Shown here: piece by piece, positions 30,727 through 45,863 of the stretch
Layout: each line of letters starts with the position of its first letter
Position numbering within the stretch: position 1 is the stretch's first letter
DNA from: Candidatus Latescibacterota bacterium
GTDB taxonomy: Bacteria; Latescibacterota; UBA2968; UBA8231
Assembly (NCBI GenBank): GCA_009691525.1
Contig: SICG01000003.1
Coordinates: 1 to 60,631 of the forward strand
Reading direction: 5' to 3'
Length of the DNA: 60,631 bases
Translations under genes and position numbers: made by a program
Notes under the pieces: generated by a model
What the model saw: only the letters and a program-made list of their open reading frames with translations
Databases searched by the model: none
Told to the model about the DNA's origin: nothing

Positions 30727-31824
30727 TTAGGGGTGCCGGGTTTGCACATATTCGACAGCGGCGCGCACCTGTGCGTCGCTGACCCCGTCGACGATCTCCA
30801 CCTGGCCGATGCGGCGGGGCAGGACAAAGCGGTGCCGGCCTTCGAGACGTTTCTTGTCGGCGCGGGTGCGCTCGACAATGAGGTCGGTGTTGAGCCGGCT
30901 CAGGCCGGAGGGTATACCCAGCCGTACCAGCAGTAGGTCCTGGCGCTCCCGCTCAACGGGGTCCCACATGCCGCGCTGCACCGCCAGTTCGCCGGCCCCG
31001 ACCATGCCCAGGATCACCGCCTCCCCGTGCAAGTATCCGTACTGGCTGGCCGATTCGATGGCGTGGCCGATGGTGTGGCCGTAGTTGAGAATGGCTCGCA
31101 ATTCACCCTCCTTTTCGTCGGCGGCCACCACCTCGGCCTTGATGCGCGCATTGCCGGCGATGAGCCAGTCCAGCTCGTCGGGGTCCAGCTCCAGGCCGAC
31201 TACCTGCTCGATATGGCGCTCCAGGAAGGCGAAGAGTTCCGGATCGCGGATCAGGGCGTGTTTGACCACCTCGGCCATGCCGGCCACCAGCTCGCGGCGC
31301 GGCAGAGTGTGCAAGAGCGCCGTGTCGATGCACACCAGGCGGGGCTGGTGGAAGGCGCCGATCATGTTCTTGCCCAGGGCGTGGTTGACCCCGGTTTTGC
31401 CGCCGATGCTGGCGTCCACCTGGGAGACAATGGTGGTGGGCACCTGGACAAAGGGGATGCCGCGCAGAAAGGTGGCGGCCACAAAGCCGGCCAGATCCCC
31501 CACCACGCCTCCTCCCAGGGCCAGCACCCAGGCGGTGCGATCCAGGCCGGCCTGAATCAATTGCCCGAAGATCTTCTCGGCAGTGCGCAGGTTTTTGGCG
31601 GCGTCGGTGCCGGCAAAGCGCACCTCGGTGACCTCGAAGCCGGCCTCCCGCAAGCTGGCGGCGGCCGGGGCCAGGTGCAGGCCGGCCACGGTGTGGTCGG
31701 TGATCAGCGCCACCTGCCGGCCCAGGCCCGCAGCCCGACACAATTCCCCCAGGCGCGATAAGACGCCATGTCCTACGTGGATGGCATAGGGATGGGGTTC
31801 AAGGGCTAGGGCTATGGTCTGCAT
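30727..31824 (-). CDS. aroB: 3-dehydroquinate synthase
   Basis: GGGVVGD, DASIGGKTG, LNYGHTIGHAIE, HGEAV, DKK. Confidence 0.95.
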   Translation of the reverse strand: MQTIALALEPHPYAIHVGHGVLSRLGELCRAAGLGRQVALITDHTVAGLHLAPAAASLREAGFEVTEVRFAGTDAAKNLRTAEKIFGQLIQAGLDRTAWVLALGGGVVGDLAGFVAATFLRGIPFVQVPTTIVSQVDASIGGKTGVNHALGKNMIGAFHQPRLVCIDTALLHTLPRRELVAGMAEVVKHALIRDPELFAFLERHIEQVVGLELDPDELDWLIAGNARIKAEVVAADEKEGELRAILNYGHTIGHAIESASQYGYLHGEAVILGMVGAGELAVQRGMWDPVERERQDLLLVRLGIPSGLSRLNTDLIVERTRADKKRLEGRHRFVLPRRIGQVEIVDGVSDAQVRAAVEYVQTRHP

Positions 31825-32347
31825 GCCACTGCTCCAGAGTTTGGGCCAGACGGTTGGCGGTGGTTTCGGGGTCCGCCTCGTCGCTGGTGTGGAACTGGAT
31901 GTCCGCCCGGTTGTAGAAGGGGGCGCGCTCGGCCAGCAAACGCTCGACCTTGCTGCGTTTCTCCTGGGGGCTCAGGCCGGCCAGCAGGGGACGGTCTTCC
32001 TTGCGGCCGACTCGTTCGAGGATGGTGTCCACCGAGGCCTGCAGGCACACCACCACACCCCCGGCCAGGCCGAGTACTGCCCAGTTGCGCTCTTGGGCGA
32101 TGGCGCCCCCGCCCAGGGCGATCACTGCTTCGGGGCGGGCAGCTGCCTCGGCCAGGCACTGGTACTCGAGCTGGCGGAACTGCGCCTCCCCCTGGGTGGC
32201 AAAGATCTGGGGGATGCTCAGGCCGGCCCGCTCCTCGATCAGGTGGTCGGTGTCGACGAAGACGCGGCCCAGGCGCTGGGCCAGGAGCCGGCCGATTTTG
32301 GTCTTGCCGGTGCCCATGAAGCCAGTGAGAAAGACCGGGCCTTTCAC
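31799..32347 (-). CDS. aroK: Shikimate kinase
   Basis: GFMGTGKT, GEAQFR, LGGG, RPLL; GTG start at 32347. Confidence 0.92.
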   Translation of the reverse strand: MKGPVFLTGFMGTGKTKIGRLLAQRLGRVFVDTDHLIEERAGLSIPQIFATQGEAQFRQLEYQCLAEAAARPEAVIALGGGAIAQERNWAVLGLAGGVVVCLQASVDTILERVGRKEDRPLLAGLSPQEKRSKVERLLAERAPFYNRADIQFHTSDEADPETTANRLAQTLEQWHADHSPSP

Positions 32348-32511
32348 CGCGACGGGGGCTCCTGCCGCTTGGCGCGCTTCTGCGCGTAACACTGCTCGCA
32401 GTTCCACAGCGGCGGTTTGTTCAGCGCGTTGTATCCCTCGTCCACCACGTCTCGCCGCAACTGCTTGGTCTCCTTGCCGCAGGTGTCGCAAACGAGTCTT
32501 TTCTGTGTCAT
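32344..32511 (-). CDS. Small zinc-ribbon-like protein (55 aa)
   Basis: CDTC...CEQC; stop overlaps aroK GTG; AAGGA RBS. Confidence 0.65.
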   Translation of the reverse strand: MTQKRLVCDTCGKETKQLRRDVVDEGYNALNKPPLWNCEQCYAQKRAKRQEPPSR

Positions 32512-32543
32512 CTCGTTTCCTTTCCCCAAAGACCCTTCCTCCG

Positions 32544-32568
32544 CAACGCCCCATACGTTGGGGCGTTG
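32544..32568. other. Intergenic hairpin just after argS
   Basis: CAACGCCCCA-TACGT-TGGGGCGTTG, perfect 10-bp stem, no U-tract. Confidence 0.6.
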
Positions 32569-34439: not shown

Positions 34440-34826
34440 CTACCAGAGCACTTCGGCTTTATAGCGGTGGAACTGCTCGTCTGCGGTGAGGATCGGGGTA
34501 TGTTCCAGCAATGCCTGGGCGATCAAGAGCCGGTCAAAGGGGTCGGGGTGATGCAAGGGGAGGCGGTGTACATGGAGCGTGTGGGCCAACTCTACTGGAA
34601 GGGCGAGAAAGCCGTTCTTCTTGAGTTGCTCAGGGACAAAGCGGTCCGGGTTTTTAGGCAAGGTCAGCTTGCCCAGGGCGACCTTGATAGCGATCTCCCA
34701 CCCCGATACCGCGCTGAGGAAGATCTGGTTCCGGGTATTGCCTAAGAGTTTGCGGGCAGTCGCGGAGAGGCGAGGGGAGTCGTCTATCCACCACAGAAAG
34801 GCGTGGGTATCCAGCAGGATGTTCAT
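34440..34826 (-). CDS. vapC: VapC-like PIN toxin
   Basis: LLDTHAFLW, WEIAIK, HPDPFDRLLIAQA, LTAD. Confidence 0.92.
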   Translation of the reverse strand: MNILLDTHAFLWWIDDSPRLSATARKLLGNTRNQIFLSAVSGWEIAIKVALGKLTLPKNPDRFVPEQLKKNGFLALPVELAHTLHVHRLPLHHPDPFDRLLIAQALLEHTPILTADEQFHRYKAEVLW

Positions 34827-35059
34827 GCCTCGAATACCTGTAGCACCTCTGCCGGCAAGGGGGCATTAAAGTCCTCGGCCATGGAGATCTTGCCTTTGGC
34901 GCTTCCCGGTCGGCGCTGGTGCTTGCGGCTCTCAAGAGGCACTAGGCGGGCAATGGGCTTGCCAGCCTTGGCGATGACGATCTCTTCGCCGCTGCTCACG
35001 CGGTCGAGCAGTTGGGAAAAATGGGTCTTGGCGGCGTGGATATTTACCTGGGTGGGCAT
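34823..35059 (-). CDS. Phd/YefM antitoxin
   Basis: VNIHAAKTHFSQLL, GEEIVIAKAGKPIARLVP. Confidence 0.92.
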   Translation of the reverse strand: MPTQVNIHAAKTHFSQLLDRVSSGEEIVIAKAGKPIARLVPLESRKHQRRPGSAKGKISMAEDFNAPLPAEVLQVFEA

Positions 35060-35120: not shown

Positions 35121-35933
35121 TCAGAAGTCGTAATCGATGGACCAGGCGTACTCCTGGCTGCCCAGCAGGGTGCGCTCCAGATAGGGCTCCCACGAGAAGG
35201 TGCGAGGGTTGCCCCAGATCAGGAAGAAGTCGGGGGCAAAGCTGCAGGTGGCGCTCACCATGCCCAGTTTGGGGTGGCGCTGCTGGATCACCAGTTTGGT
35301 GTCGCCCTCGTGGTCCAGTTTGGCCGAGTCTCCGGGCCAGGGCCGGCCTTTGCGGCAGATGTACCCGTTGGCGGCCAGGGTATAGCCCTGGCTTTCCCCA
35401 AAGGACACCGGGAAGTTGACCCGGAAGAGTTCGTCAGTTTCGGGATGGGGGTAGAAGGGATGGGGAAACCAGCGCAGGTTGAGGAATCCCTGGCCCAGAT
35501 TCTCCACCCGAATCTCGGAGCGCACGGTGCGCTCGATCAGGGTAAGGGTGCGTTCCAGGCGCAGGGCGTGGTTCTGGAAGCGCTGCTCGGTGATCATGTG
35601 CACCCGGTCGGGTTGGCGGGTCACCTCCCATTTGCAGAACTCCAGTACCTTGTTGGCTTTCATGTCGCAGAGGCCGATGCCGACGATCAGGCTGGTGGGG
35701 TCGGCCGAATAGGGGTCGCGCAGCGGGCTGAGGTTGAAGGCGTCGGGGATGCCCTGGCCGTCGAAGACATTGAAGCTGTCCGGGTAGGTGGGGCCGCTGA
35801 GCAGGTCGCCCAGCTTGCGGTCCTCTATCTGAAAGATGTACCCGCCGGTGCAGTAGCGGGGACCCATGCGCTCCTGGTCGGCCAGGGGGTCGAGGACAGA
35901 GACGGTGAGTTGGTGGTTGGCAAGGGTGTACAT
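35121..35933 (-). CDS. Hypothetical protein, possible galactose mutarotase-like fold
   Basis: Clean 270-aa ORF with GGAG RBS; WFPHPFY and SWEPY resemble aldose epimerase His/Glu motifs. Confidence 0.55.
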   Translation of the reverse strand: MYTLANHQLTVSVLDPLADQERMGPRYCTGGYIFQIEDRKLGDLLSGPTYPDSFNVFDGQGIPDAFNLSPLRDPYSADPTSLIVGIGLCDMKANKVLEFCKWEVTRQPDRVHMITEQRFQNHALRLERTLTLIERTVRSEIRVENLGQGFLNLRWFPHPFYPHPETDELFRVNFPVSFGESQGYTLAANGYICRKGRPWPGDSAKLDHEGDTKLVIQQRHPKLGMVSATCSFAPDFFLIWGNPRTFSWEPYLERTLLGSQEYAWSIDYDF

Positions 35934-35985
35934 GGGGTGTGGTCTCCAGTTGGAGGTGATTGAATTACGAGAGCAGCAGAGGGCG

Positions 35986-36127
35986 CGTCGGTGAGCGACC
36001 CGCTACGGTTTTCCCAAGGCGCGTCCTGCCCCCTCGCTCGCTCTGGCTCCGCTACCCCTCCACCACGCCGCGCGGACTTCCCCGCCCGACCGCTCCCCAG
36101 GAAAAACCTTCGGGGTCATCTCCCCGC
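35986..36127. repeat. Structured intergenic repeat, copy 1
   Basis: About 142 bp aligning to 42658-42798; imperfect terminal inverted repeats. Confidence 0.9.
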
Positions 36128-36130
36128 CGC

Positions 36131-37015
36131 TCAGTTGGCTGCCGGTTTTAACGGGGAGGGTTTGCCCAAGCGTTCTAGCGCCGCAGCCCGCATGACCTCG
36201 ACCGGAGGTTCTACTCCGGTCCAGATGGCAAAGGCCCGCGCGCCCTGGCGGGCCAGCATGCCCAGGCCATCCACCGGGCGGGCGCCGGCCTGGCGGGCCT
36301 GGCGCAGCAGCAGGGTTTCGAGTGGATTGTAAACGATGTCTAGCACCACCATGCCTGTGTGCAGGCAGGCGGGGTTTGGCAGGGGCGAGGCGTCGGGGTG
36401 AGGGTGCATGCCGATGGAGGTCGAGTTGATCAGCAGGCCGGCGGCGGCCACTTGTTCGCCGGAGGACGCATCCAACACCCCGGGCTGGACCCGTTTTCCC
36501 TCTGGATCAAGGGACGCGGCCAGGGCCGCAGCTTTTTCCGCAGTGCGGTTGAGCAGGGCGATGTGCTCCACTTCGGGACGTTGCAGCAGGGCGTAGAGGA
36601 TGGCCCGCGCTGCGCCGCCGGCCCCCAGCAGAGCCACCCGGGAGGGCAGGGTTTCCAGGCCCCCGTCCAGGCGCAGGCTCTGCATCACCCCGTAAGCATC
36701 GGTGTTGTGCCCGATCAGCCGACCCTCGCGGTGGTCGATGGTGTTCACCGCGCCGATGGCCCGGGCCTCGGGCGAGATCTCGTCGAGCAGGGCCATCACC
36801 CCCACCTTGTGGGGCACAGTCACGTTGAGGCCGCGGAAATTCAGGGCGCGCATGCCGGCGATGGCCGGGCCCAATTCCTCGGGGCGCACCGGGAAGGCGG
36901 TGTACACATACTCCAGTCCCAGGGCCGCGATGGCGGCGTTGTGCATGGCCGGCGAGGAGGTGTGTTCCACCGGGTGGCCGATGATCCCCAGCACCCGGGT
37001 CTTGCCGCTGATCAC
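36131..37015 (-). CDS. aroE: Shikimate dehydrogenase
   Basis: SPAMHN, NVTVPHK, GAVNT, NTD, GAGGAA, DGLGML. Confidence 0.95.
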   Translation of the reverse strand: MISGKTRVLGIIGHPVEHTSSPAMHNAAIAALGLEYVYTAFPVRPEELGPAIAGMRALNFRGLNVTVPHKVGVMALLDEISPEARAIGAVNTIDHREGRLIGHNTDAYGVMQSLRLDGGLETLPSRVALLGAGGAARAILYALLQRPEVEHIALLNRTAEKAAALAASLDPEGKRVQPGVLDASSGEQVAAAGLLINSTSIGMHPHPDASPLPNPACLHTGMVVLDIVYNPLETLLLRQARQAGARPVDGLGMLARQGARAFAIWTGVEPPVEVMRAAALERLGKPSPLKPAAN

Positions 37016-37152
37016 GGCAGCAGATCCTCGACGAACTGCTCGGCGATGCCCCAGCTCTCGCGCCAGGTAGCGCCGCAACGCCAGCGGATCAGCACCACTC
37101 CGCCGGCCAACACCACGGCGGCCAACACGCACAATCTGATCAATCCCCTCAT
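37012..37152 (-). CDS. Small single-TM protein (46 aa)
   Basis: MRGLIRLCVLAAVVLAGGVVLIRWRCGATWRESWGIAEQFVEDLLP; 4-nt overlaps with both neighbours. Confidence 0.65.
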   Translation of the reverse strand: MRGLIRLCVLAAVVLAGGVVLIRWRCGATWRESWGIAEQFVEDLLP

Positions 37153-38429
37153 TTTCTACGCTCCTGGAGTTTTTCCAGAGTCGGGAAGAAAGCCGGAAAG
37201 ACCTCCTCCAGGCCCTGGGTGTCAGAGAGGGTCATCTCGCCCTCGGCCCACAGTCCGGCCACCGCAAAGGCAAAACACAGGCCGGCATTCCCGCGGGTAT
37301 CGATGGCCGCACCCTTGAGTGGGTACCCGCCCTCGACGACCAGGCCTTCGGGAAATTCGCCCACCTTGGCCTCGATGAAGCGCAGCTGCTGGACCAGGTG
37401 GGCCAGGTAGTCGGATTCGCCCTGGCGCAGCACCTCGACGTCGCGGATGACAAACTCCCCTTCGCTCTGGGTGGCCATCACCGCCAGCAGCGCCACCTGG
37501 TCGAGCAGCTTCTCGGCGCGCTGCCCGGCGATGCGGGTGGGTTTGAGTTTGCCCGAGCGCACCAGCACGTCGGTGGTGCCGTCGTCGTTCTCCTCGAAGG
37601 TGAGGGGCGCACCTAGCTGGCGCAGCAGATCAAAAAAGAAACGCCGGCCCGAACGGATGGCCAGCCGGCGAAGGCGCAGCTCCGAACGCCGCAGCGCCAG
37701 GGCCGCCACTACCAGAGGCAGGGCCAAAAGCGCGTCGCCGGCAATCTCTAACTCCCGCCCCTTCAGTTCCTGCCCGCCGTTGATGGAGAGAGCCCACTCG
37801 CCCTCGCTGTCCTGCCGGCGGCGCAGCACCTCAACACCCCACTGGCGCAGGGGGCGTTCTGCCCGTTCGCCGGTCTTGAGCAATTCGCGCAGGGTGGTGG
37901 TGCCCTGGGTGTAGAGGCCGGCCACCAACAGGGCGGTTTTGATCCCCAGCACCAGTTCGGCTGCCGCGTGGGTGATGGGCTGCAGGGGACGCCCGCCGCC
38001 CACCAGCCACCGGCCTTCCGCCTCGGCGTGGACCTCGGCGCCGGACGCGGCCATCAGGGCCAGCAGTTGCCTGCCCTCTTCCTCCGCCTCACCCAAATAC
38101 ACGCGGGTGCTGAACTCCTGGCCGCAGAGCAGGGCCAGCAAGTACAGGGCTTCGTCGCCCAGGCCTTCCAGATTCACGGTGTCGCGGGGGGCGCTGAAGC
38201 CGAGCCGTCCTTTTCCCTGGACCACCAGCACTCCGGGCTCTTCGGTGATGGCGATGCCCAGATCGCGCAGCAACCTCACCAGCCGCCGGCAGGAGAGGGG
38301 CGAATTGGAGATGCGGCTTTCGCCCTGGGCCAAGGCAGCCAGCACCAGGGCCTGGGAAGCGCTCTCCAGTTCGCCGGGGACGGTGGCTTCGCCGGCCAGC
38401 TTGCGCGCCGGGCGCACCATGCGTTCCAC
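37149..38429 (-). CDS. EPSP synthase (AroA)-like protein with degenerate active site
   Basis: Colinear with class II AroA over its full length but lacks the GDKS..HR, GNSGT, RP, SAQ, RDHTE, KE..R and DHR motifs. Confidence 0.8.
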   Translation of the reverse strand: MERMVRPARKLAGEATVPGELESASQALVLAALAQGESRISNSPLSCRRLVRLLRDLGIAITEEPGVLVVQGKGRLGFSAPRDTVNLEGLGDEALYLLALLCGQEFSTRVYLGEAEEEGRQLLALMAASGAEVHAEAEGRWLVGGGRPLQPITHAAAELVLGIKTALLVAGLYTQGTTTLRELLKTGERAERPLRQWGVEVLRRRQDSEGEWALSINGGQELKGRELEIAGDALLALPLVVAALALRRSELRLRRLAIRSGRRFFFDLLRQLGAPLTFEENDDGTTDVLVRSGKLKPTRIAGQRAEKLLDQVALLAVMATQSEGEFVIRDVEVLRQGESDYLAHLVQQLRFIEAKVGEFPEGLVVEGGYPLKGAAIDTRGNAGLCFAFAVAGLWAEGEMTLSDTQGLEEVFPAFFPTLEKLQERRK

Positions 38430-39554
38430 CTAGCGCCTCCTGGCCTGGTAGCCCAGGCCGGCCAACACGGCCAGCGCGTGATCGGCGGCCGGTTCACTGT
38501 CGAATCCCAGGCGCAGGGTGCCGCCCTCCCCTTCCCTCACCTTCATCACCTCGATGTCGTTGATATTGATTTTTTCGTGCGCCAGCGCCTGGGCGATCTG
38601 GCCGATGATTCCCGGCTTGTCTTCGGCCACCACCAGGATTTCAAAGAGGGTGTGGATGAAACCCTTGGCGTCGCGCGGGATGCGGTTGCGGGTGTGATTG
38701 GCAAAGGCGAAATCCTGTCCCAGGCTCGGGTCGGCAATACGACCGCGCACGTCCTGCAATACGGCGATGTACTGGTCGATCATCCGGCCGATCTGGTCCT
38801 CGTTGGTGCGGCAGATGTCCTCCCACACCGGTGCGTACGGGCTGGAGGCGATGCGGGTCAGGTCGCGGAAGCCGCCGGCGGCCAGGGTGAGAAAATAGCC
38901 CTTTTCCTCGTGGAGCCGGCCCACCATCTCTACCAGCGAAGTGGCGATCATCTGTGGCAGGTGGCTGATGGCGGCCACCACCTCGTCGTGGGTCTCGGCA
39001 TCGAGTTCCAGCACCTTGGCGCCCACTTCCTTAAGCAATTGCACCAGGGCCCCGTAGAGTGGAGCGGGCACTGCAGTGCCGGGCACCAGGATGTAGATGG
39101 CATTCTGAAAGAGAAAGGGGTCGGCGGCGCTGACCCCGGCCTTTTCGGAGCCGGCCATGGGATGGCCGCCCACAAAGTGAAGATCGGGGCGCAGTTGGGC
39201 GGCGGCCTGGGCGACGATGCGGCGCTTGGTGCTGCCCACGTCGGTGATCAGGGCGCCGGGGGCAGCGCAGCGGCCCACTTCTTCTAACAGGGAGAGGATG
39301 CGCTGGATGGGTGTACACAGCACAACTAGGTCGGCCCCTTCCAGGGCCTTGGCCAGGTCCGGGTAGTCCCAGCCCTCATCGATGACTCCCAGTTCGAGGG
39401 CCTGGGCGATGGTCTCGGGCCGGCTGACGCCCACCAGGCGGGCCGGGTGGGCCAGCCGCTTGAGGGCCAGGCCCAGGGAGCCGCCGATCAGCCCGACTCC
39501 GACGATGGCAATGCGCTTGAAGAAGGCTAGGTCCTCCTGAAGACTAGTGGTTAT
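38430..39554 (-). CDS. tyrA: Prephenate/arogenate dehydrogenase with C-terminal ACT domain
   Basis: GVGLIGGS, DVGSTK, GGHPMAGSE, HD..VA.ISHLP, GFRDLTRIA, DKPG; start uncertain (ATA at 39554). Confidence 0.88.
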   Translation of the reverse strand: MTTSLQEDLAFFKRIAIVGVGLIGGSLGLALKRLAHPARLVGVSRPETIAQALELGVIDEGWDYPDLAKALEGADLVVLCTPIQRILSLLEEVGRCAAPGALITDVGSTKRRIVAQAAAQLRPDLHFVGGHPMAGSEKAGVSAADPFLFQNAIYILVPGTAVPAPLYGALVQLLKEVGAKVLELDAETHDEVVAAISHLPQMIATSLVEMVGRLHEEKGYFLTLAAGGFRDLTRIASSPYAPVWEDICRTNEDQIGRMIDQYIAVLQDVRGRIADPSLGQDFAFANHTRNRIPRDAKGFIHTLFEILVVAEDKPGIIGQIAQALAHEKININDIEVMKVREGEGGTLRLGFDSEPAADHALAVLAGLGYQARRR

Positions 39555-39817
39555 GGTGTTTCTCTCTCTTCGAGGTTGCGGGCTTCCTGCATGATGCGGT
39601 TGAAGAGGTCCTCGATGGTCTGGGTGCTGAGGGGCCCCTGGTTGTACGCGGTGAGCCGTTCGAGGATGGCTCGTTCCCGCTGGAGGTCCTGGACGGGCCT
39701 GCCGTGTTGGCGTTTGAGCCGGCCGATCTCCAGCACGTACTGCAGGCGCTGGTTGAGCAGGTCCACTAGTTGCTGATCCACCGCGTCGATGCGGGCCCGC
39801 CATTCACTCAAGTCCAT
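39551..39817 (-). CDS. Chorismate mutase (AroQ class)
   Basis: WRARIDAVDQQLVDLLNQR, IGRLK, RE. Confidence 0.9.
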   Translation of the reverse strand: MDLSEWRARIDAVDQQLVDLLNQRLQYVLEIGRLKRQHGRPVQDLQRERAILERLTAYNQGPLSTQTIEDLFNRIMQEARNLEERETP

Positions 39818-39824
39818 GGCGGCC

Positions 39825-40808
39825 CTACCTCAGCCCCATGGCGCAGCGCACCCGGGTCATGGTCGCCTCGACCAGGGGGCGCAGTCGTGTCACGCCCTGG
39901 GCCAGGATCTGGTCGATTTGTTCGGGTGCACTGGTGATCTCGCGATAGCGCGCTTGGATGGGTTCGAGGGTGGCGACCACTAGGTCGGCCAGGTCGCCCT
40001 TGAGCTGGGCGTAGCCCTTGCCGGCAAAGTGGGCCTCGATCTCTTCCTGGCTCTGGCCGGAGAGGGCTTGAAAGATGGTGAGCAGGTTAAAAACCCCAGG
40101 GCGCTCGCGGTCGAAGACAATCTCGCGCTGCGAGTCGGTGGTGGCCCGGCTCAACTTCTTGCGGATCAGGGCTGGCGGGTCGAGCAGCCCGATGCCGTGG
40201 CTGTCGCTGGTGGTGGACTTGGACATTTTCTTGCTCGGATCGTCGAGGCCCATCACCCGCGCCGCCACCTTGCGGATCACCGGCTCGGGCAACACAAAGG
40301 TCTCCCCGAAGAGATGATTGAAGCGCTGGGCGATGTCGCGGGCCAGTTCTACATGCTGTTTCTGATCGTCGCCCACCGGCACTTCCTCGGTCTGGTAGAG
40401 CAGGATGTCGGCGGCCATCAGGGTGGGGTAGGTGAAGAGTCCGGCGCTGACCTGCTCGCGCAGGTCGTCCGATTTCTCCTTGAACTGGGTCATGCGCTGC
40501 AGCCAGCCCATGGGGGTAACGCAGTTGAAGAGCCAGGCCAGCTCGGTGTGCTCGGGGACATGGGACTGTACGAAGAGGGCGCACGGTGCGGGATCGAGGC
40601 CGCAGGCCAGGTACAGGCCCACCAGTTCGCGCACGTTCTGCCGCAGGGCAGCCGGCTCGTAGTCGACGGTGATGGCGTGCTGGTCCACCACACAGAAGAT
40701 ATTTTCACACTTGTCCTGGTCGGCCACCCAGTTGCGGATGGCCCCCAGGTAGTTGCCCAGGTGCAGGCTGCCCGAAGGCTTGATGCCCGAGAAAACGCGT
40801 TTTTTCAT
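39825..40808 (-). CDS. trpS: Tryptophan--tRNA ligase
   Basis: HLGNYLG, YPTLMAADIL, VPVGDDQ, KMSKS. Confidence 0.95.
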   Translation of the reverse strand: MKKRVFSGIKPSGSLHLGNYLGAIRNWVADQDKCENIFCVVDQHAITVDYEPAALRQNVRELVGLYLACGLDPAPCALFVQSHVPEHTELAWLFNCVTPMGWLQRMTQFKEKSDDLREQVSAGLFTYPTLMAADILLYQTEEVPVGDDQKQHVELARDIAQRFNHLFGETFVLPEPVIRKVAARVMGLDDPSKKMSKSTTSDSHGIGLLDPPALIRKKLSRATTDSQREIVFDRERPGVFNLLTIFQALSGQSQEEIEAHFAGKGYAQLKGDLADLVVATLEPIQARYREITSAPEQIDQILAQGVTRLRPLVEATMTRVRCAMGLR

Positions 40809-41590
40809 CGCCCCAACAGCTCTCTGACTTTGGCCCCGATGTCCGCCTCCCGCATCAGGGCTTCGCCCACCAGGACGGCGTCGGCACCGGCTTCCTGCAG
40901 TCGCTCCACATCGGCGCGGGTATTGATGCCGCTCTCGCTCACTTTCAGGCACCCCTCCGGCAGCAGGGGGAAGAGTTCAAAGGTGGTGTCCAGGGTGGTC
41001 TTGAAAGTCTTGAGGTCGCGGTTGTTGACCCCCACCAATCCGGCCCCTGCCTGCACGGCGCGCTCGGCCTCGGGGCGGGTGTGTACCTCCACCAGGGCGG
41101 CCAGACCCAACTCGGCGGCCAGACCGAGGAAATCCTCCAACTGGCTGCCGTCCATCAGCGCCACGATCAATAAGACCGCGTCGGCGCCCAGCACCCTGGC
41201 CTGGTAGAGCTGGTACGGGTCCAGGGTGAAGTCCTTGCGCAGGGTGGGCAACCCGGCCACCCTGCGGGCCGCCTGTAGGTACTCGTTGCACCCTTGAAAA
41301 TAAGCCTCGTCGGTCAGCACCGAAAGCGCCCGCGCCCCGTGTTCGGCATAGGTGGCGGCGATGCGCTCGGGATCGAAGTCAGCGCGGATGAGGCCCTTGG
41401 AAGGGGAGGCTTTCTTGATTTCGGCGATCAGTGCCACTTCCTTCCCCCTCAGGGCGCCGACAAAGTCGAGGGGCGGCGGGGCGTCGGCAGCGGCATGGCG
41501 CAGGTCGGCTAGGGAGTGCAGGTGTTTGTCGCGCTGCACCACCTCGCGTTTGTAGGTGGCGATCTCCTGGAGGACGTCGCGGCCGTTCAC
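40805..41590 (-). CDS. trpC: Indole-3-glycerol phosphate synthase
   Basis: EIKKASPSKG, LSVLTD, LRKDF, GVNNRDL, SESGI. Confidence 0.95.
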   Translation of the reverse strand: MNGRDVLQEIATYKREVVQRDKHLHSLADLRHAAADAPPPLDFVGALRGKEVALIAEIKKASPSKGLIRADFDPERIAATYAEHGARALSVLTDEAYFQGCNEYLQAARRVAGLPTLRKDFTLDPYQLYQARVLGADAVLLIVALMDGSQLEDFLGLAAELGLAALVEVHTRPEAERAVQAGAGLVGVNNRDLKTFKTTLDTTFELFPLLPEGCLKVSESGINTRADVERLQEAGADAVLVGEALMREADIGAKVRELLGR

Positions 41591-42597
41591 CGGTTGCTCA
41601 CCTGCCTGAGGACTTCCAAGGCCTGCAGCGCCCTGCCGGAGGCGATGGACTGACGGGCCAGTTCCATACCCTCATTCAGGTCAGCGGCCAGGCCGCCGGC
41701 GGCGATGGCAGCGGCGGCGTTGAGCAGCACGATATCGCGCGGCGGGCCTTCTTCACCTTTGAGCACTGCACCCAGGATCTGGGCGTTGTGCTGGGCGTCG
41801 CCTCCCTTGAGGGCAGCGGCAGGGGCGGTCTTGAGACCGAACTCTTCGGGGCGCACCTGGTAGGTGGAGACCTGGCCCGCCTTGAGTTCGGCCACCTGGG
41901 AGGGGCCGGTGAGGGTGAGTTCGTCGAGGCCATCGCTGCCGTGGACCACCAAGGCCCGTTCCGAACCCAGGGCCTTGAGCACCTGGGCCAGCTTCTCGGT
42001 GAGGCTGCCGCTGTACACGCCGATGAGCTGGCGGCGGGCTCCGGCCGGATTGGTCAGCGGTCCCAGGGCGTTGAAGACGGTGCGGGTGCCCAGTTCGCGG
42101 CGCGGGCCAATGGCGTGTTTCATGGCGCCGTGGAGTTTGGGGGCAAAGAGGAAACCGATGCCGGCCTCGTCGAGGCAGGCGCCCACCTGCTCGGGGCCGA
42201 TCTCCACGTTCACCCCCAGGGCCTGGAGCACGTCGGCCGAGCCGCACTGGCTCGACATGGCGCGGTTGCCGTGTTTGGCCACGCACAGGCCGGCCCCGGC
42301 GGCCACAAAGGCTACCGTGGTGGAGATGTTGAAGGTGCCCGACCCATCGCCGCCGGTGCCGCAGGTGTCGATCAGGGGCTGGCGGCTGGTGTGGATGGGG
42401 GTGGCCTTCTGGCGCATGGCCTCGGCGCAGCCGGCGATTTCCTCGGCGGTTTCGCCCTTGCAGCGCAGGGCGATCAGGAAACCGGCAATCTGGGCGTCGG
42501 TGGTCTGGCCGCTCATGATCTGGTCCATGACCTGCCTGGCCGTCTCGCGGCTGAGGTCTTTTCGGTCGATCAGCTGCTGGATGGCTTCTTTGATCAT
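41587..42597 (-). CDS. trpD: Anthranilate phosphoribosyltransferase
   Basis: DTCGTGGD, NIST, KHGNR, GSAD, GLDE. Confidence 0.95.
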   Translation of the reverse strand: MIKEAIQQLIDRKDLSRETARQVMDQIMSGQTTDAQIAGFLIALRCKGETAEEIAGCAEAMRQKATPIHTSRQPLIDTCGTGGDGSGTFNISTTVAFVAAGAGLCVAKHGNRAMSSQCGSADVLQALGVNVEIGPEQVGACLDEAGIGFLFAPKLHGAMKHAIGPRRELGTRTVFNALGPLTNPAGARRQLIGVYSGSLTEKLAQVLKALGSERALVVHGSDGLDELTLTGPSQVAELKAGQVSTYQVRPEEFGLKTAPAAALKGGDAQHNAQILGAVLKGEEGPPRDIVLLNAAAAIAAGGLAADLNEGMELARQSIASGRALQALEVLRQVSNR

Positions 42598-42657
42598 CGC
42601 TATTTTCCTGTGCCGAGAGATAGGGCTAGTAGTCCATCATATTGACTCTGAAGGTGT

Positions 42658-42798
42658 CGTCGGGGAGCGACCCGCTCCGGCCTTTCCCAAGGCGCGTCCT
42701 TCACCCTCGCTCGCTCTGGCTCCGCTACCCAACCCCCAACCACGTGGACTTCCCTGCCCAGCCACTCCCCGGGAAAGGCCTCGGGGTCATCTCCCCGC
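42658..42798. repeat. Structured intergenic repeat, copy 2
   Basis: Aligns to 35986-36127 in the same orientation. Confidence 0.9.
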
Positions 42799-42819
42799 GC
42801 AGTACCACGCCGATCGCTT

Positions 42820-42867
42820 GAAAGAAAAGGCGAGGAGAACGACCTCACCGGGATGGTACTGTTCCAT
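42820..42867 (-). pseudogene. N-terminal remnant of PemK/MazF-like toxin
   Basis: MEQYHPGEVVLLAFSF directly after an antitoxin-like gene; similarity is lost just before the repeat element. Confidence 0.5.
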
Positions 42868-42870
42868 TTC

Positions 42871-43092
42871 TCAGGGGAGCCGGTCGTACACGACATCAGC
42901 GTCGCTGTATCCCGCGAGGAACTGCTCTGCGGTCAATTGCGCCCAGGCAGACGGGTCTTGATCGGTCTCGGGAACCAGGAGGAGCACCCGGACCTCCTTT
43001 TCTCGCGGCAGTTGGTCGCTGAAGCCAGCGGGGATATCGAGCTGGCCATCGGCGGTAATTTTTTCCGGGAATTCGTAGGCTTTCACACGCAC
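42871..43092 (-). CDS. Small acidic antitoxin-like protein
   Basis: KITADGQLDIP (AbrB-like), C-terminal FLAGYSDADVVYD; true start may be GTG at 43086. Confidence 0.6.
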   Translation of the reverse strand: MRVKAYEFPEKITADGQLDIPAGFSDQLPREKEVRVLLLVPETDQDPSAWAQLTAEQFLAGYSDADVVYDRLP

Positions 43093-43167: not shown

Positions 43168-43551
43168 TCACACACTGATCTTGTAATCCAATTTGGCTTC
43201 GTCGCCGGTCAGGCCGCGGAAGCCCCAGTTGTGGGGTGGGCTTTCGCGGATGCTGATCTCGACGTCCACGGGGGCGATGCCCAACTGGGATTCTATGGTC
43301 TCGAAGAGCAGGTGGAGCAGTTTCTTCTTGGCTTCGACCGAGCGGCCTTCCATCATGTCGATCTCGATGAGGGTGTAGGCGTCGGAGCGGCCCTCCGGGT
43401 AGTAGAGGTCTTCGCGATCCAGAGGGAAGAAACGATGCGCCCTTTTGTTCGGGGGAAATTTCAGGGCTTCGACCATGCAGGTATTGATGAGGTCCGAGAG
43501 CCGGCTCTTGATGGGGTTCAGTTTTTCTCGGATACCGTAGATGCGGATCAT
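43168..43551 (-). CDS. Tautomerase family protein (cis-CaaD/MSAD-like length)
   Basis: GRSDAYTLIEI..MEGRSVEAKK, NWGFRG; ATGA coupling to trpE(G). Confidence 0.85.
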   Translation of the reverse strand: MIRIYGIREKLNPIKSRLSDLINTCMVEALKFPPNKRAHRFFPLDREDLYYPEGRSDAYTLIEIDMMEGRSVEAKKKLLHLLFETIESQLGIAPVDVEISIRESPPHNWGFRGLTGDEAKLDYKISV

Positions 43552-45692
43552 TCTGTTCCTCCCTTCGCCAGTTTTTCTATCACTCGCGCGATAAGTCTGA
43601 GTCCCAGGTTTTCCTTGAGGGTGAGGATGGATTCGGGGTGGAACTGCACCGCTGCCGCTGGATAACTCTCGTGTTCCACGGCCATGATCACCCCCTCCTC
43701 GGTGCGGGCCCGCACCTTGAGGCAGGCGGGCAGGGCCTCGGGGATGGCAAAGAGGGAGTGGTAGCGGCCGGCCACGAAGGTGGCAGGGAAGCCCTCCAGA
43801 AACCCCTCCCCCGAACACTCGACCACCGAACTCTTGCCGTGCATGGGGTACCCGAGCACCCCCAACTTGCCGCCAAAGGCCTCGACCATGCCCTGCAGCC
43901 CCAGGCACACCCCAAAGACGGGCAGTCGGCGCTGCACACACTGGCGCACCAGTTCGGGCACCCCGAATTCCTCGGGGGTGCCCGGCCCCGGCGAGATGAA
44001 CACCAGATCTGGTTTCAGCTCGTCGAGCAGGTGATAGGGAAAGCCGGCCCGCAGGGTGGTGACCTCGGCCCCGGTCTGGCGCACGTAATCCCCCAGGGTG
44101 TGCACAAAGGAGTCGCGGTTGTCGACAAAGAGCACCTTCTTGCCAGTGCCGGTGGCCTGCAGCGCGAGCGCACTTTGCGGGGCCGGGGGAGCCAACCCCA
44201 GCACCGCGTTGGTGAAGGCCTCGGCCTTGGTGCGGCATTCCCGCTCTTCCTCGTCGGGATCTGAATCGCACAGGATGGTGGCCCCCACCCGCACCCTGGC
44301 CTCGCCCTCCTCCAGGTGGACGGTGCGGATGGTGATGCCGGTGTTGATGTCTCCGTTGAAGCGCAACATGCCCACGCAGCCCCCGTACCAGCGGCGGGCG
44401 GAGTTTTCCAGCGTCTCGATCATCTGCATGGCCGCCGGCTTGGGCGCTCCGGTCAAGGTGACGGCCCACAGGTGGGAGAGCAGCGCGTCGAAGGCGTCGA
44501 AGCCGGGCCGCAGTTCGCCCACCACGTGATCCACGGTGTGGATGAGCCGCGAGTAGGTCTCGATCAGCCGGCGGCCCAGCACCCGCACGCTGCCGGCCTT
44601 GCAGACCCGGGCCTTGTCGTTGCGGTCCACGTCGGTACACATGGTCAACTCGGCCTCGTCCTTCTGCGAGTTGAGCAGGGTCAGGATCTGGTCGGCGTCT
44701 TCGATGGGCGAAGCCCCGCGCCGGATGGTGCCGGCGATGGGGCAGGTCTCCACCTGAGTGCCTTCCACCCGCACGAACATCTCGGGCGAGGCACCCACCA
44801 GCTGCTCGTGGCCCAGGTTGATGAGGAACTCGTACGGGCTGGGATTGGTGCGGCGGATATTGGCGAAGAGGTCGCTGGGCGCTCCGGCAAAACCGGCGCT
44901 GAGCACCTGGCTGGGCACTACCTCGAAGAAATCGCCCCGGCCGGTGCCCTCGATGATCCGGCGCACCTTGTCGGCGTACTCGCCAGGGGCGTGGTCGCTG
45001 GCCAGCGCACTGCGTTTGCCCTGCACCGGCGGCAGGGCCTGACCGCCGCCGGCCAGACCATGGGTGGAGAGTTGGCCGAGGCAGAAGTCGTAGCGGTAAC
45101 GGAGGGCCTGCTCCTTGCGATGGTCGACGACGATCAGCTCGTCGGGCAGAAAGAGGTGCAGGTCGGGGTGTTGGGCCGGGCGCTGGTGGCGCAGGGTTAT
45201 GGGTTCGAACTGGAAAACCAGGTCGTAGCCCATGGCCCCGTAGAATCCCAGGTGGGGTTCGCCGGGAGCGCCGAACTGCCGGACCAGGGCGCGCAGCAGG
45301 CTGAAGATGGTGGGCTGCTTGCTGCGCTCTTCCTCGGAAAAATGGGCGGGCATGGGCGCCACCTGGCCGCGCAACTCGTCCTCGCTGTTCTCCAGGGCGC
45401 TGAGATGGGCATGGCCCTCGATGCCCTGGCGGAAGAGCTGCAGCAAGGGCCGGCCCCGTTGGTTGAGGGCGCGCACGGTGAAGTCGCGGCCGCGGGCCAC
45501 CACCTCCACTGGCGGATCGACGAAGCCGATATCCCAGCGGCTGTACCGCCCCGGATATTCGTAGCCGCTGGCAAAAACTGCGCCCCGGTGGGCGTCCAGC
45601 CGTGCCAGGAGGAGGTCCAGGGCCCCGGCGACGGGCAGTTCTTCGACGGCGCAGGTGACTTCGATACCGCCGGCTGTCAGATAGGTATGCAT
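43548..45692 (-). CDS. trpE: Anthranilate synthase, fused TrpE-TrpG
   Basis: NPSPY, ASPE, PIAGT, TGAPK, WYGG, then DNRDSF, SPGPG, GVCLG, QFHPES. Confidence 0.93.
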   Translation of the reverse strand: MHTYLTAGGIEVTCAVEELPVAGALDLLLARLDAHRGAVFASGYEYPGRYSRWDIGFVDPPVEVVARGRDFTVRALNQRGRPLLQLFRQGIEGHAHLSALENSEDELRGQVAPMPAHFSEEERSKQPTIFSLLRALVRQFGAPGEPHLGFYGAMGYDLVFQFEPITLRHQRPAQHPDLHLFLPDELIVVDHRKEQALRYRYDFCLGQLSTHGLAGGGQALPPVQGKRSALASDHAPGEYADKVRRIIEGTGRGDFFEVVPSQVLSAGFAGAPSDLFANIRRTNPSPYEFLINLGHEQLVGASPEMFVRVEGTQVETCPIAGTIRRGASPIEDADQILTLLNSQKDEAELTMCTDVDRNDKARVCKAGSVRVLGRRLIETYSRLIHTVDHVVGELRPGFDAFDALLSHLWAVTLTGAPKPAAMQMIETLENSARRWYGGCVGMLRFNGDINTGITIRTVHLEEGEARVRVGATILCDSDPDEEERECRTKAEAFTNAVLGLAPPAPQSALALQATGTGKKVLFVDNRDSFVHTLGDYVRQTGAEVTTLRAGFPYHLLDELKPDLVFISPGPGTPEEFGVPELVRQCVQRRLPVFGVCLGLQGMVEAFGGKLGVLGYPMHGKSSVVECSGEGFLEGFPATFVAGRYHSLFAIPEALPACLKVRARTEEGVIMAVEHESYPAAAVQFHPESILTLKENLGLRLIARVIEKLAKGGTE

Positions 45693-45705
45693 GGCACTCT
45701 CTCCC

Positions 45706-45746
45706 AAAAAAAGAAACCGCGAGCGCTTTAGGTGCGCCCGCGGTTT
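45706..45746 (-). terminator. Attenuator terminator upstream of trpE(G)
   Basis: AAACCGCGGGCGC-7nt-GCGCTCGCGGTTT followed by CTTTTTTT. Confidence 0.9.
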
Positions 45747-45770
45747 TAGCTTGCTCCGGTGAATCGGCTG

Positions 45771-45863
45771 CTATGCGCTGTGGGGTGGACGCACTCCTGC
45801 AATGCTCCAAGTATAGGGCCAGGAGCGCCACCAACGGTTGCTATGGGCAGAGCGAAGTTTCAT
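45771..45863 (-). CDS. trpL: Trp operon leader peptide (30 aa)
   Basis: MKLRSAHSNRWWRSWPYTWSIAGVRPPHSA; four Trp including tandem WW. Confidence 0.88.
   Translation of the reverse strand: MKLRSAHSNRWWRSWPYTWSIAGVRPPHSA

Follow-up and report, generated by a model that had tools for sequence, protein, structure and literature searches.

What is a gene doing in the aroA position of an aromatic-amino-acid operon if its product follows 5-enolpyruvylshikimate 3-phosphate (EPSP) synthase from end to end, but lacks the residues with which that enzyme holds its substrates? EPSP synthase is the target of glyphosate and a textbook example of a single-function, monomeric enzyme. The question is raised by a stretch of DNA of 60,631 nucleotides from a Candidatus Latescibacterota bacterium (GenBank assembly GCA_009691525.1, contig SICG01000003.1; hereafter the window), in which the position between tyrA and aroE (hereafter the slot) holds a gene for a protein of 426 residues, which we call pAroA, followed by a gene for a peptide of 46 residues. 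An earlier interpretation of the same DNA, made from its letters alone (the sequence-only reading), had proposed either a maintained pseudoenzyme or a new activity. Our analysis makes it very likely that the slot gene is a class II aroA of the operon that was displaced and then retained as a pseudoenzyme. As an overall explanation we favor, with slightly less confidence, a non-catalytic descendant of the operon's EPSP synthase that was kept after its displacement and acts through one of its two domains, domain 1, as a binding subunit.

Fold and active site of the slot protein

The frame is open from a GTG codon to its stop, and Pfam identifies the neighbors as tyrA and aroE, in keeping with the uninterrupted open reading frame (ORF) that the sequence-only reading had described. 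The Pfam family EPSP_synthase (PF00275) matches pAroA with 135.8 bits against a cut-off of 22.8, residues 6-418 corresponding to positions 2-417 of the 417 in the profile, and the closest solved relative by sequence is AroA of Coxiella burnetii (3tr1/3roi; E 3.6e-45, aligned over 6-416). The protein thus does follow class II EPSP synthase throughout its length, as had been claimed. The structure modeling that had been proposed gives the same picture: the AlphaFold2 (AF2) model, calculated with 27 orthologues, has a predicted local distance difference test (pLDDT) value of 93.5 and a predicted template modeling (pTM) value of 0.88, and its best Foldseek matches are EPSP synthase structures (E ~3e-36; top template modeling (TM) score 0.84 on 3roi_B). 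The full-length PF00275 match and the two-domain fold found by AF2 and Foldseek place pAroA in the fold superfamily. With the class II enzymes (Coxiella 3roi/3slh/3tr1; Agrobacterium CP4 2gg4) it has in common the same two-domain inside-out alpha/beta fold throughout, and the same operon position after tyrA.

Narrower family assignments do not hold. With the aroA equivalog TIGR01356, pAroA scores 149 bits, under the cut-off of 287.25 and outside the equivalog. Its best NCBIfam match is the AroA half (model positions 305-720) of PRK14806, a bifunctional prephenate dehydrogenase/EPSP synthase with the same tyrA-then-aroA order, but the score of 169 bits lies far under the cut-off of 902, and PRK14806 is one fused polypeptide whereas pAroA and TyrA are separate. 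Two further differences from the class II enzymes are treated below: pAroA is not the sole aroA homologue in its genome, and its domain 2 has been lost in sister lineages.

pAroA also differs from class II EPSP synthase in the active site, where the ligands of shikimate 3-phosphate (S3P) and phosphoenolpyruvate (PEP) are all replaced. We take K22, R27, R100, R124, S169-S170-Q171, K340, R344, H385, R386 and K411 (E. coli numbering) to be the residues that bind the phosphate and carboxylate groups of these substrates; pAroA has L, Q, L, E, V-L-G, G, Y, A, G and E, respectively, at these positions. Both an alignment to the Coxiella enzyme and a MAFFT alignment show GDKSISHR replaced by GELESASQ, GNSGT by EGLGD, SAQVK by VLGIK, RDHTE by GERAE, GDISS by GDALL, KETDR by GESDY and DHR by NAG, while RRP is lost. 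Every motif replacement listed by the sequence-only reading was recovered in both alignments, and the change of K411 to E is an addition to its list. pAroA therefore lacks the ligand residues of an EPSP synthase (EC 2.5.1.19).

The same loss is found in the relatives of pAroA. We aligned 61 orthologues (19 relatives' loci and 42 proteins, not de-duplicated, with some genomes counted twice) with 30 canonical AroAs of the same family and 10 other AroAs. K22, R100, R124, Q171, H385, R386 and K411 are each kept in 0/61 orthologues and in 30/30 canonical AroAs, and R27 is kept in 16/61 against 30/30. Loss of the same positions in 61/61 orthologues, set against their retention in 30/30 canonical AroAs, is more than chance.

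The sequence-only reading had also pointed out that equivalents of the catalytic Asp and Glu remain. This is correct for pAroA itself: D310 and E338 occupy the positions of D313 and E341 (E. coli numbering), which we take to be the catalytic acid/base pair. It does not extend to the orthologues, where the first position is D in 36/61 and the second is E in 13/61. Because the two residues are not conserved, the remaining Asp and Glu of pAroA would be leftovers, not a maintained catalytic pair. The positions of the former pocket are variable among the 61 orthologues and show no new consensus: the K22 position is L in 33, R in 11, V in 9 and F in 3, followed by rarer residues, and the E341 position is E in 13, D in 13, P in 9 and K in 5, again with others. 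This variability argues against a rebuilt active site.

The working aroA and the history of the slot

Loss of these residues in the slot gene leaves a metabolic puzzle: how is the EPSP step carried out? Chorismate synthase (aroC) is present in the source genome, a metagenome-assembled genome (MAG) of 200 contigs, so the step is needed, and the sequence-only reading had expected that another EPSP synthase would have to supply it. A search of the genome found that enzyme. Contig C54 of this MAG carries a canonical aroA (locus L001, 1465-2769), which scores 356.5 bits with TIGR01356, above the cut-off of 287.25, and has all the ligand residues. Its neighbors are an epimerase-family gene and a DsbD_N gene, with no aromatic-pathway genes. 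Since the same type of aroA recurs in 4/4 same-genus genomes (345-361 bits, ~93% identity to the nearest), the C54 gene is not contamination. Across the family, an aroA above the cut-off is present in 54/61 genomes; among the seven that remain, no fewer than four (G007, G008, G015 and G047) have a partial second match, which in three cases starts some twelve bases or less from the end of a contig.

The canonical aroA genes of the family are of two sequence types, one beginning ...PPSSKNYT(S/T)RYLL (331-373 bits) and one beginning ...PGSKSYTNRALL (413-435 bits). The presence of two types within one family suggests that the working aroA has itself been repeatedly exchanged or differentially lost. 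At the C54 locus and at loci L025-L053, the two types (PPSSKNYT.RYLL and PGSKSYTNRALL) are only 32-35% identical to each other and are distributed by genus, and one relative (G081) has two canonical aroA genes.

We surveyed the slot itself with the 46-residue peptide as probe, which gave 52 loci on genome contigs and 80 on metagenome contigs. All 52 genome-contig loci are titled as Latescibacterota or, probably by mislabeling, as Gemmatimonadetes MAGs. Upstream of the peptide lies a dead copy of full length at 44 genome-contig and 42 metagenome-contig loci, which makes 86 such copies across the two contig collections scanned, and a dead copy cut by a contig end at 3 and 23, respectively. A shortened or mini form, described below, was found at 2 and 4 loci, and an intact gene at 2 (L095 and L097) and 2 (L190 and L195, judged from C-terminal motifs only). 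The sequence upstream is too short at 1 and 8 loci, and there is no slot gene at 0 and 1 (L182). A 'mixed' motif assignment for L090 was rejected as an artefact, the motif lying outside the gene.

The class II AroAs of L095 and L097 have the motifs VPGDKSISHR, NSGTTMR, KRP, SAQVK, TRDHTER, IDE, KKETDR and DHR intact, score 417 bits with TIGR01356 and 495 bits with PRK14806 (their best NCBIfam match too), and are followed by the 46-residue peptide. The intact slot AroA is 36% identical to pAroA, and the two have in common the lineage-specific residues S249, R263, R270, E325, D330, G357 and G367. Because the peptide accompanies intact slot enzymes too, its association with the slot seems to predate the loss of catalysis. 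In the genomes with an intact slot aroA, inserted genes separate it from tyrA: a gene for a methyltransferase and a nucleotidyltransferase/HEPN pair (L095, 1238-2722).

Whole-genome searches gave an inverse pattern. The L095 and L097 genomes have no aroA besides the slot gene. In each of two genomes whose slot copy is dead, a single canonical aroA lies elsewhere, and a genome with a mini form carries two such genes. A second aroA is thus inverse to an intact slot gene in 5/5 genomes tested.

A maximum-likelihood tree of 58 rows (a quick search, not bootstrapped) was calculated with all columns and again with 24 catalytic columns removed. The dead copies all lie on one side of a branch with a Shimodaira-Hasegawa-like approximate likelihood ratio test (SH-aLRT) support of 98, or 94 without the catalytic columns. 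The intact slot enzymes are next to them (94; 92 without those columns), followed by the intact class II sequences P0047 and P0048 (94; 93), and the canonical aroAs of the same genomes are far from the dead copies. The simplest history would be that a class II AroA of the operon, already accompanied by the peptide, was displaced by another aroA, lost its active site once, and was kept. A second aroA of unrelated lineage would have taken over the conversion of S3P and PEP to EPSP in the ancestor of most Latescibacterota, and the tyrA-linked copy would then have lost all of its phosphate- and carboxylate-binding residues while staying folded under purifying selection.

Selection, single-domain forms and possible roles

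We estimated ratios of nonsynonymous to synonymous substitution (dN/dS) by pairwise Nei-Gojobori comparison of four genomes of the genus. The pAroA gene gives 0.21-0.31, beside 0.11-0.17 for tyrA, 0.16-0.24 for aroE, 0.15-0.41 for chorismate mutase (CM) and 0.10-0.25 for the 46-residue ORF. Within pAroA, residues 21-230 (domain 2) give 0.26-0.36, and residues 1-20 together with 231-426 (domain 1) give 0.16-0.27. Among 27 orthologues with 39-89% identity, 39 columns are invariant, and the best-conserved stretch is residues 296-400. An orthologue is present in 24/24 other genomes of the same family (40-89% identity), and the order CM-tyrA-X-46aa-aroE, where X is the slot gene, is kept in 19/20 relatives' loci, the exception (L009) stopping at a contig edge. 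Over the two contig collections the slot gene was counted at 124 loci, with nine that have too little sequence upstream and the one lacking a slot gene left out. The slot gene therefore combines the sequence-level features of a pseudoenzyme: homology with loss of essential residues, purifying selection, and a canonical aroA elsewhere in the genome. The preference of the sequence-only reading for a maintained pseudoenzyme over random decay is borne out by these values, and the comparison of dN/dS and synteny that it recommended gave ratios well below 1 and a gene order kept across Latescibacterota. The slot relatives with intact motifs are not close ones, being only 36% identical to pAroA and outside the dead group.

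Which part of the protein is being maintained? Sister families of the same class have slot genes of only 215-227 residues (~216). In the alignment of these mini forms, the N-terminal strand (residues 1-18/20) is joined directly to about residue 231. Residues 1-20 and ~240-427 of the EPSP synthase fold presumably form one globular domain and residues ~20-240 the other, in agreement with the secondary structure of our model; the deletion matches these boundaries, and so it is exactly domain 2 that is removed. There are two types of junction, ...VPGD-P(D/E)T.LYLL... and ...(V/L)P-(E/S)G(K/E)W-N.LCA..., and the two kinds of mini form occupy separate places in the tree, so that two changes are required. 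Domain 2 was excised cleanly at least twice, and the sister lineages concerned have retained domain 1 only. The best AF2 model of a mini form (pLDDT 91.9) superposes on one EPSP synthase domain with TMq 0.77-0.82 over ~200 columns. A single domain is not enough for an enzyme that works by closing two of them over the substrates, and the retained function of the slot protein must therefore reside in domain 1. A profile search with the mini-form alignment gave 8841 matches at E ≤ 0.001, with one clear further mini form (P0102) in the top 150; of the 13 short matches inspected, the 12 besides P0102 are gene fragments of intact or dead full-length proteins, and no single-domain form is shown by them outside the lineage.

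These results bear on the new activity that the sequence-only reading had offered beside a pseudoenzyme, in which the interdomain cleft would have been rebuilt for a non-phosphorylated substrate or another transfer reaction. Such a neofunctionalized enzyme would account for the full-length two-domain fold, for purifying selection on both domains in the family, and for E20, whose conservation in the family is ~93% at a position that is S/D in canonical enzymes; there is also precedent in enolpyruvyl-transferase folds that serve other substrates, such as MurA. However, the former pocket positions vary among the orthologues, no new conserved polar cluster is found at the cleft positions, and a cleft that has lost one of its domains in sister lineages cannot be a conserved functional site. 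We consider a new activity improbable, and of the two proposals we favor the pseudoenzyme.

A different explanation is suggested by the gene junctions. The tyrA stop codon TAG directly abuts the pAroA GTG (TAG-GTG), with AGGAGG 6 nt 5' of this GTG; the peptide ATG overlaps the pAroA stop (ATGA; AAAATGA in the window), and the peptide stop overlaps the probable aroE GTG (GTGA). Between slot gene and peptide, a 4-nt overlap is found at 47/75 loci and a gap of no more than 9 nt at 67/75, some genomes being included twice. The aroE start at this junction was deduced from metagenome contig L182 together with the sequence of the window, and aroE orthologues in most loci align starting just past the peptide stop. 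Overlapping and abutting codons along tyrA, slot gene, peptide and aroE indicate what is probably a translationally coupled chain, and the slot frame might be kept solely as a coupling spacer for the peptide and aroE, its protein having no function. A spacer needs an open frame, not a specific sequence; yet domain 1 has a dN/dS of 0.16-0.27, 39 columns stay invariant in a set of 27 sequences whose identity falls as low as 39%, folding is confidently predicted for the full-length protein as well as for the mini form, and the deletions take out exactly one structural domain, not arbitrary lengths. A pure spacer is thus even harder to accept than a new activity.

Fast divergence might also be read as recent decay, with the frame still open by chance: pAroA proteins are 42-52% identical across the family, compared with 63-75% for TyrA, and so evolve faster than their neighbors. 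This reading is scarcely credible, given a gene that is open and syntenic in 24/24 other family genomes and beyond, 86 full-length dead copies, an internal stop in one relative only (a single TAA in G055), and dN/dS well below 1. Least credible of all is a true EPSP synthase with an unprecedented active site, the C54 gene being contamination or having another role: the classical tyrA > aroA position (PMC1173090) and the estimated 5% contamination of the MAG would fit, but every known phosphate ligand is gone, C54-type genes occur in 4/4 same-genus genomes at ~93% identity, a degree of divergence that the slot gene shows too, and a second aroA is lacking with an intact slot enzyme and present with a dead one.

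We return to the displaced enzyme kept as a pseudoenzyme. If its function lies in domain 1, pAroA would be a binding or scaffolding subunit that converts no ligand, and its likeliest partners would be TyrA, the 46-residue membrane peptide and AroE. The slot-specific residues that are also found in the intact slot enzymes suggest that the binding surface was already present in the active ancestor. Linkage of tyrA to a following aroA is ancient, and the two genes have been fused at least twice in Proteobacteria. Because of this old linkage, because an EPSP synthase remnant in Pseudomonas syringae stayed on TyrA, and because the slot lineage is closest to the fused family, TyrA is the leading candidate among the products of the operon; a specific binding role with these products is a tentative proposal, and we would not bet on it. 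It is similarly conceivable, though doubtful, that domain 1 of EPSP synthase has a second, non-catalytic function of old standing, which the tyrA-linked enzyme had while it was still active and through which the domain docks onto TyrA and/or other operon neighbors and controls pathway flux or assembly. The membrane peptide may tether or modulate domain 1, and acquisition of a foreign aroA would let the operon copy specialize on docking. If this were true, the slot proteins would form a new family of regulatory or scaffold subunits with the EPSP synthase fold, the minimal single-domain version having ~216 residues. The order of events, the partner and the role of pAroA are what we infer from the pattern as a whole.

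Several points weigh against this explanation. We infer the catalytic inactivity of pAroA from residue loss alone, and the MAG is a draft with a completeness of 84% and a contamination of 5%. Both trees are quick searches that contain long branches, and a long-branch warning was issued for each. In this family purifying selection still acts on domain 2 (0.26-0.36), which is thus not dispensable there, and of five AF2 models for the mini form, three are poor (pLDDT 57-64). In L095 and L097, tyrA lies 1.2-1.5 kb away, behind inserted genes, so that adjacency to tyrA is not absolute. Locus L182 (842-1131) keeps the peptide and aroE without a slot gene, having an unrelated ORF and a repeat-like stretch upstream instead, which indicates that the peptide can apparently persist with aroE alone. 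Finally, the charge distribution of the peptide does not settle whether its acidic tail would face the cytoplasm.

It is instructive to compare the slot gene with known cases. The closest parallel that we found in the literature is the fused TyrA-EPSP synthase (AroF) of P. syringae (Song et al. 2005, BMC Biol 3:13, PMC1173090), whose EPSP synthase part lost ~200 N-terminal residues when a stand-alone aroA was acquired from a foreign source. The remnant stayed with TyrA, and the authors of that study suggested that it might become a regulatory domain (PMC1173090). Displacement by a foreign aroA, and truncation as in the mini forms, are common to both cases. The P. syringae remnant differs in being fused to TyrA, limited to a single species, and recent, whereas the slot gene is separate, of full length in the window, conserved at the level of a phylum, and followed by the 46-residue peptide. 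Aro1 of Candida albicans (PMC9074039) is reported to keep a catalytically silent member in a multi-enzyme shikimate-pathway context; there, however, the EPSP synthase domain is reported among the active ones and another domain is silent, while in pAroA it is the EPSP synthase fold itself that is dead, in a bacterial, separate protein.

A search of titles and abstracts for EPSP synthase as a pseudoenzyme and for the Latescibacterota shikimate pathway found no published dead EPSP synthase family. A preprint on EPSP synthase classification (10.1101/2020.05.27.118265) has many 'unclassified' sequences and, in the text that could be seen, no dead family; its supplementary tables might list such sequences. 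Pseudoenzymes and displacement of operon genes are well known, but we did not find a phylum-wide dead EPSP synthase with single-domain derivatives described. New here are the relatives whose slot gene is intact and the inverse occurrence of a second aroA, the finding that the dead copies fall into one group on the trees, the excision of domain 2 on two independent occasions, the existence of two types among the aroA genes that replaced the slot copy, the exception at L182, and the parallel with P. syringae. Intact slot enzymes, dead copies of full length and remnants with a single domain, all found in one conserved operon position, make up an unusually clean natural record of a displaced enzyme becoming a pseudoenzyme. 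It points to an unrecognized non-catalytic role of EPSP synthase domain 1, at which the fusion of TyrA to a remnant in P. syringae also hints, and the mini form is a small, tractable protein for finding that role. There is also a practical consequence: genome annotation, and surveys of glyphosate sensitivity based on counts of PF00275 or 'aroA' matches, will mislabel pAroA. The working enzyme of these genomes is another gene, and relatives of pAroA are already named '3-phosphoshikimate 1-carboxyvinyltransferase' in the sources.

The operon and its surroundings

The coordinates of pAroA, its domains and the surrounding pathway genes are collected in Table 1.

Table 1. Genes and domains of the aromatic-amino-acid region, with positions in the window.
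Feature	Coordinates	Strand	Basis
pAroA, dead EPSP synthase paralogue, 426 aa, GTG start, TGA stop 37149-37151	37149..38429	-	ORF/translation, Pfam PF00275, TIGR01356, AF2, Foldseek, ligand-residue alignment
pAroA domain 2, residues 21-230, less constrained half, deleted in sister lineages	37740..38369	-	dN/dS by domain; absent from mini forms
pAroA domain 1, residues 231-426 and residues 1-20	37152..37739 and 38370-38429	-	conserved core of every form
46-aa peptide gene, hydrophobic helix and acidic tail (SW.ES.EIADQFVEDLL)	37012..37152	-	junction sequence, 17-sequence alignment
tyrA, prephenate/arogenate dehydrogenase with C-terminal ACT domain	38430..39530 (5' end approximate)	-	Pfam PDH_N, PDH_C, ACT
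aroE, shikimate dehydrogenase	36131..37015	-	Pfam Shikimate_dh_N, SDH_C; probable GTG start at 37015
chorismate mutase (CM_2 type)	39551..39817	-	Pfam CM_2, 92.7 bits
trpS	39825-40814	-	Pfam tRNA-synt_1b
trpC	40805-41590	-	Pfam IGPS
trpD	41587-42597	-	Pfam Glycos_transf_3
aroB	30727-31824	-	Pfam DHQ_synthase
aroK	31799-32554	-	Pfam SKI

The peptide is 46 residues long in 16/17 aligned sequences and 48 in the other (L055). In these 17 sequences a hydrophobic helix is followed by invariant W30, E32, F40 and D43 within the acidic tail, and seven columns are invariant in all. No Pfam or NCBIfam family matches the peptide at E ≤ 0.01; there are weak matches to unrelated membrane-protein models (best E 0.017), and the best score of 0.78 in a search of a protein atlas is below the usable range.

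In tyrA there is no ATG, GTG or TTG between the stop of the chorismate mutase gene (39551-39553) and the conserved N-terminus (~39520). AGGAGG is present at 39531-39536, and the sole listed start (39803) would overlap the entire chorismate mutase gene. The start codon of tyrA may be non-canonical. Open frames of 738, 656 and 796 residues in relatives had raised the idea of a TyrA-pAroA fusion; it was rejected, since at the loci examined the slot gene does not share the frame of tyrA, and in the window the TAG stop separates the two.

Upstream of the chorismate mutase gene, and on its strand, are trpS, trpC and trpD. Downstream of aroE lie aroB and aroK, with argS, a vapBC-like pair and a 270-residue ORF in between. 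The pair, a VapC-like protein (PIN, 128 residues) and a VapB-like protein (78 residues) at 34440-35059, was assigned by eye from the translations; it sits between the aro genes and argS and breaks up the aroE...aroK-aroB arrangement. The 270-residue ORF (35121-35933, minus strand), directly downstream of aroE, has no Pfam family at E ≤ 1e-5. In three relatives a ubiE/MenG-type methyltransferase gene follows aroE instead (L055, 6322-7086; L056, 6847-7566; L095, 5010-5717), which is not the case in the window; it was identified by Pfam in L095 and by eye, from similar translations, in L055 and L056.

The trpD...aroE block is bracketed by two copies of a direct repeat of ~140 nt, one just downstream of aroE (35986-36127) and one just upstream of trpD (42658-42798), which are 83-91% identical in blocks. 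With 77 blastn matches across the MAG, this is a dispersed intergenic repeat, resembling repetitive extragenic palindromes or miniature inverted-repeat transposable elements (REP/MITE-like). An Rfam scan of 35900-43000 gave no match at E ≤ 0.1, and no known leader or riboswitch was seen there. Beyond the repeat, an open frame of 888 residues (43168-45834, minus strand) has a C-terminal tautomerase domain (residues 797-873) as its sole Pfam match. In this GC-rich DNA the frame probably extends well beyond a small tautomerase gene that it contains.

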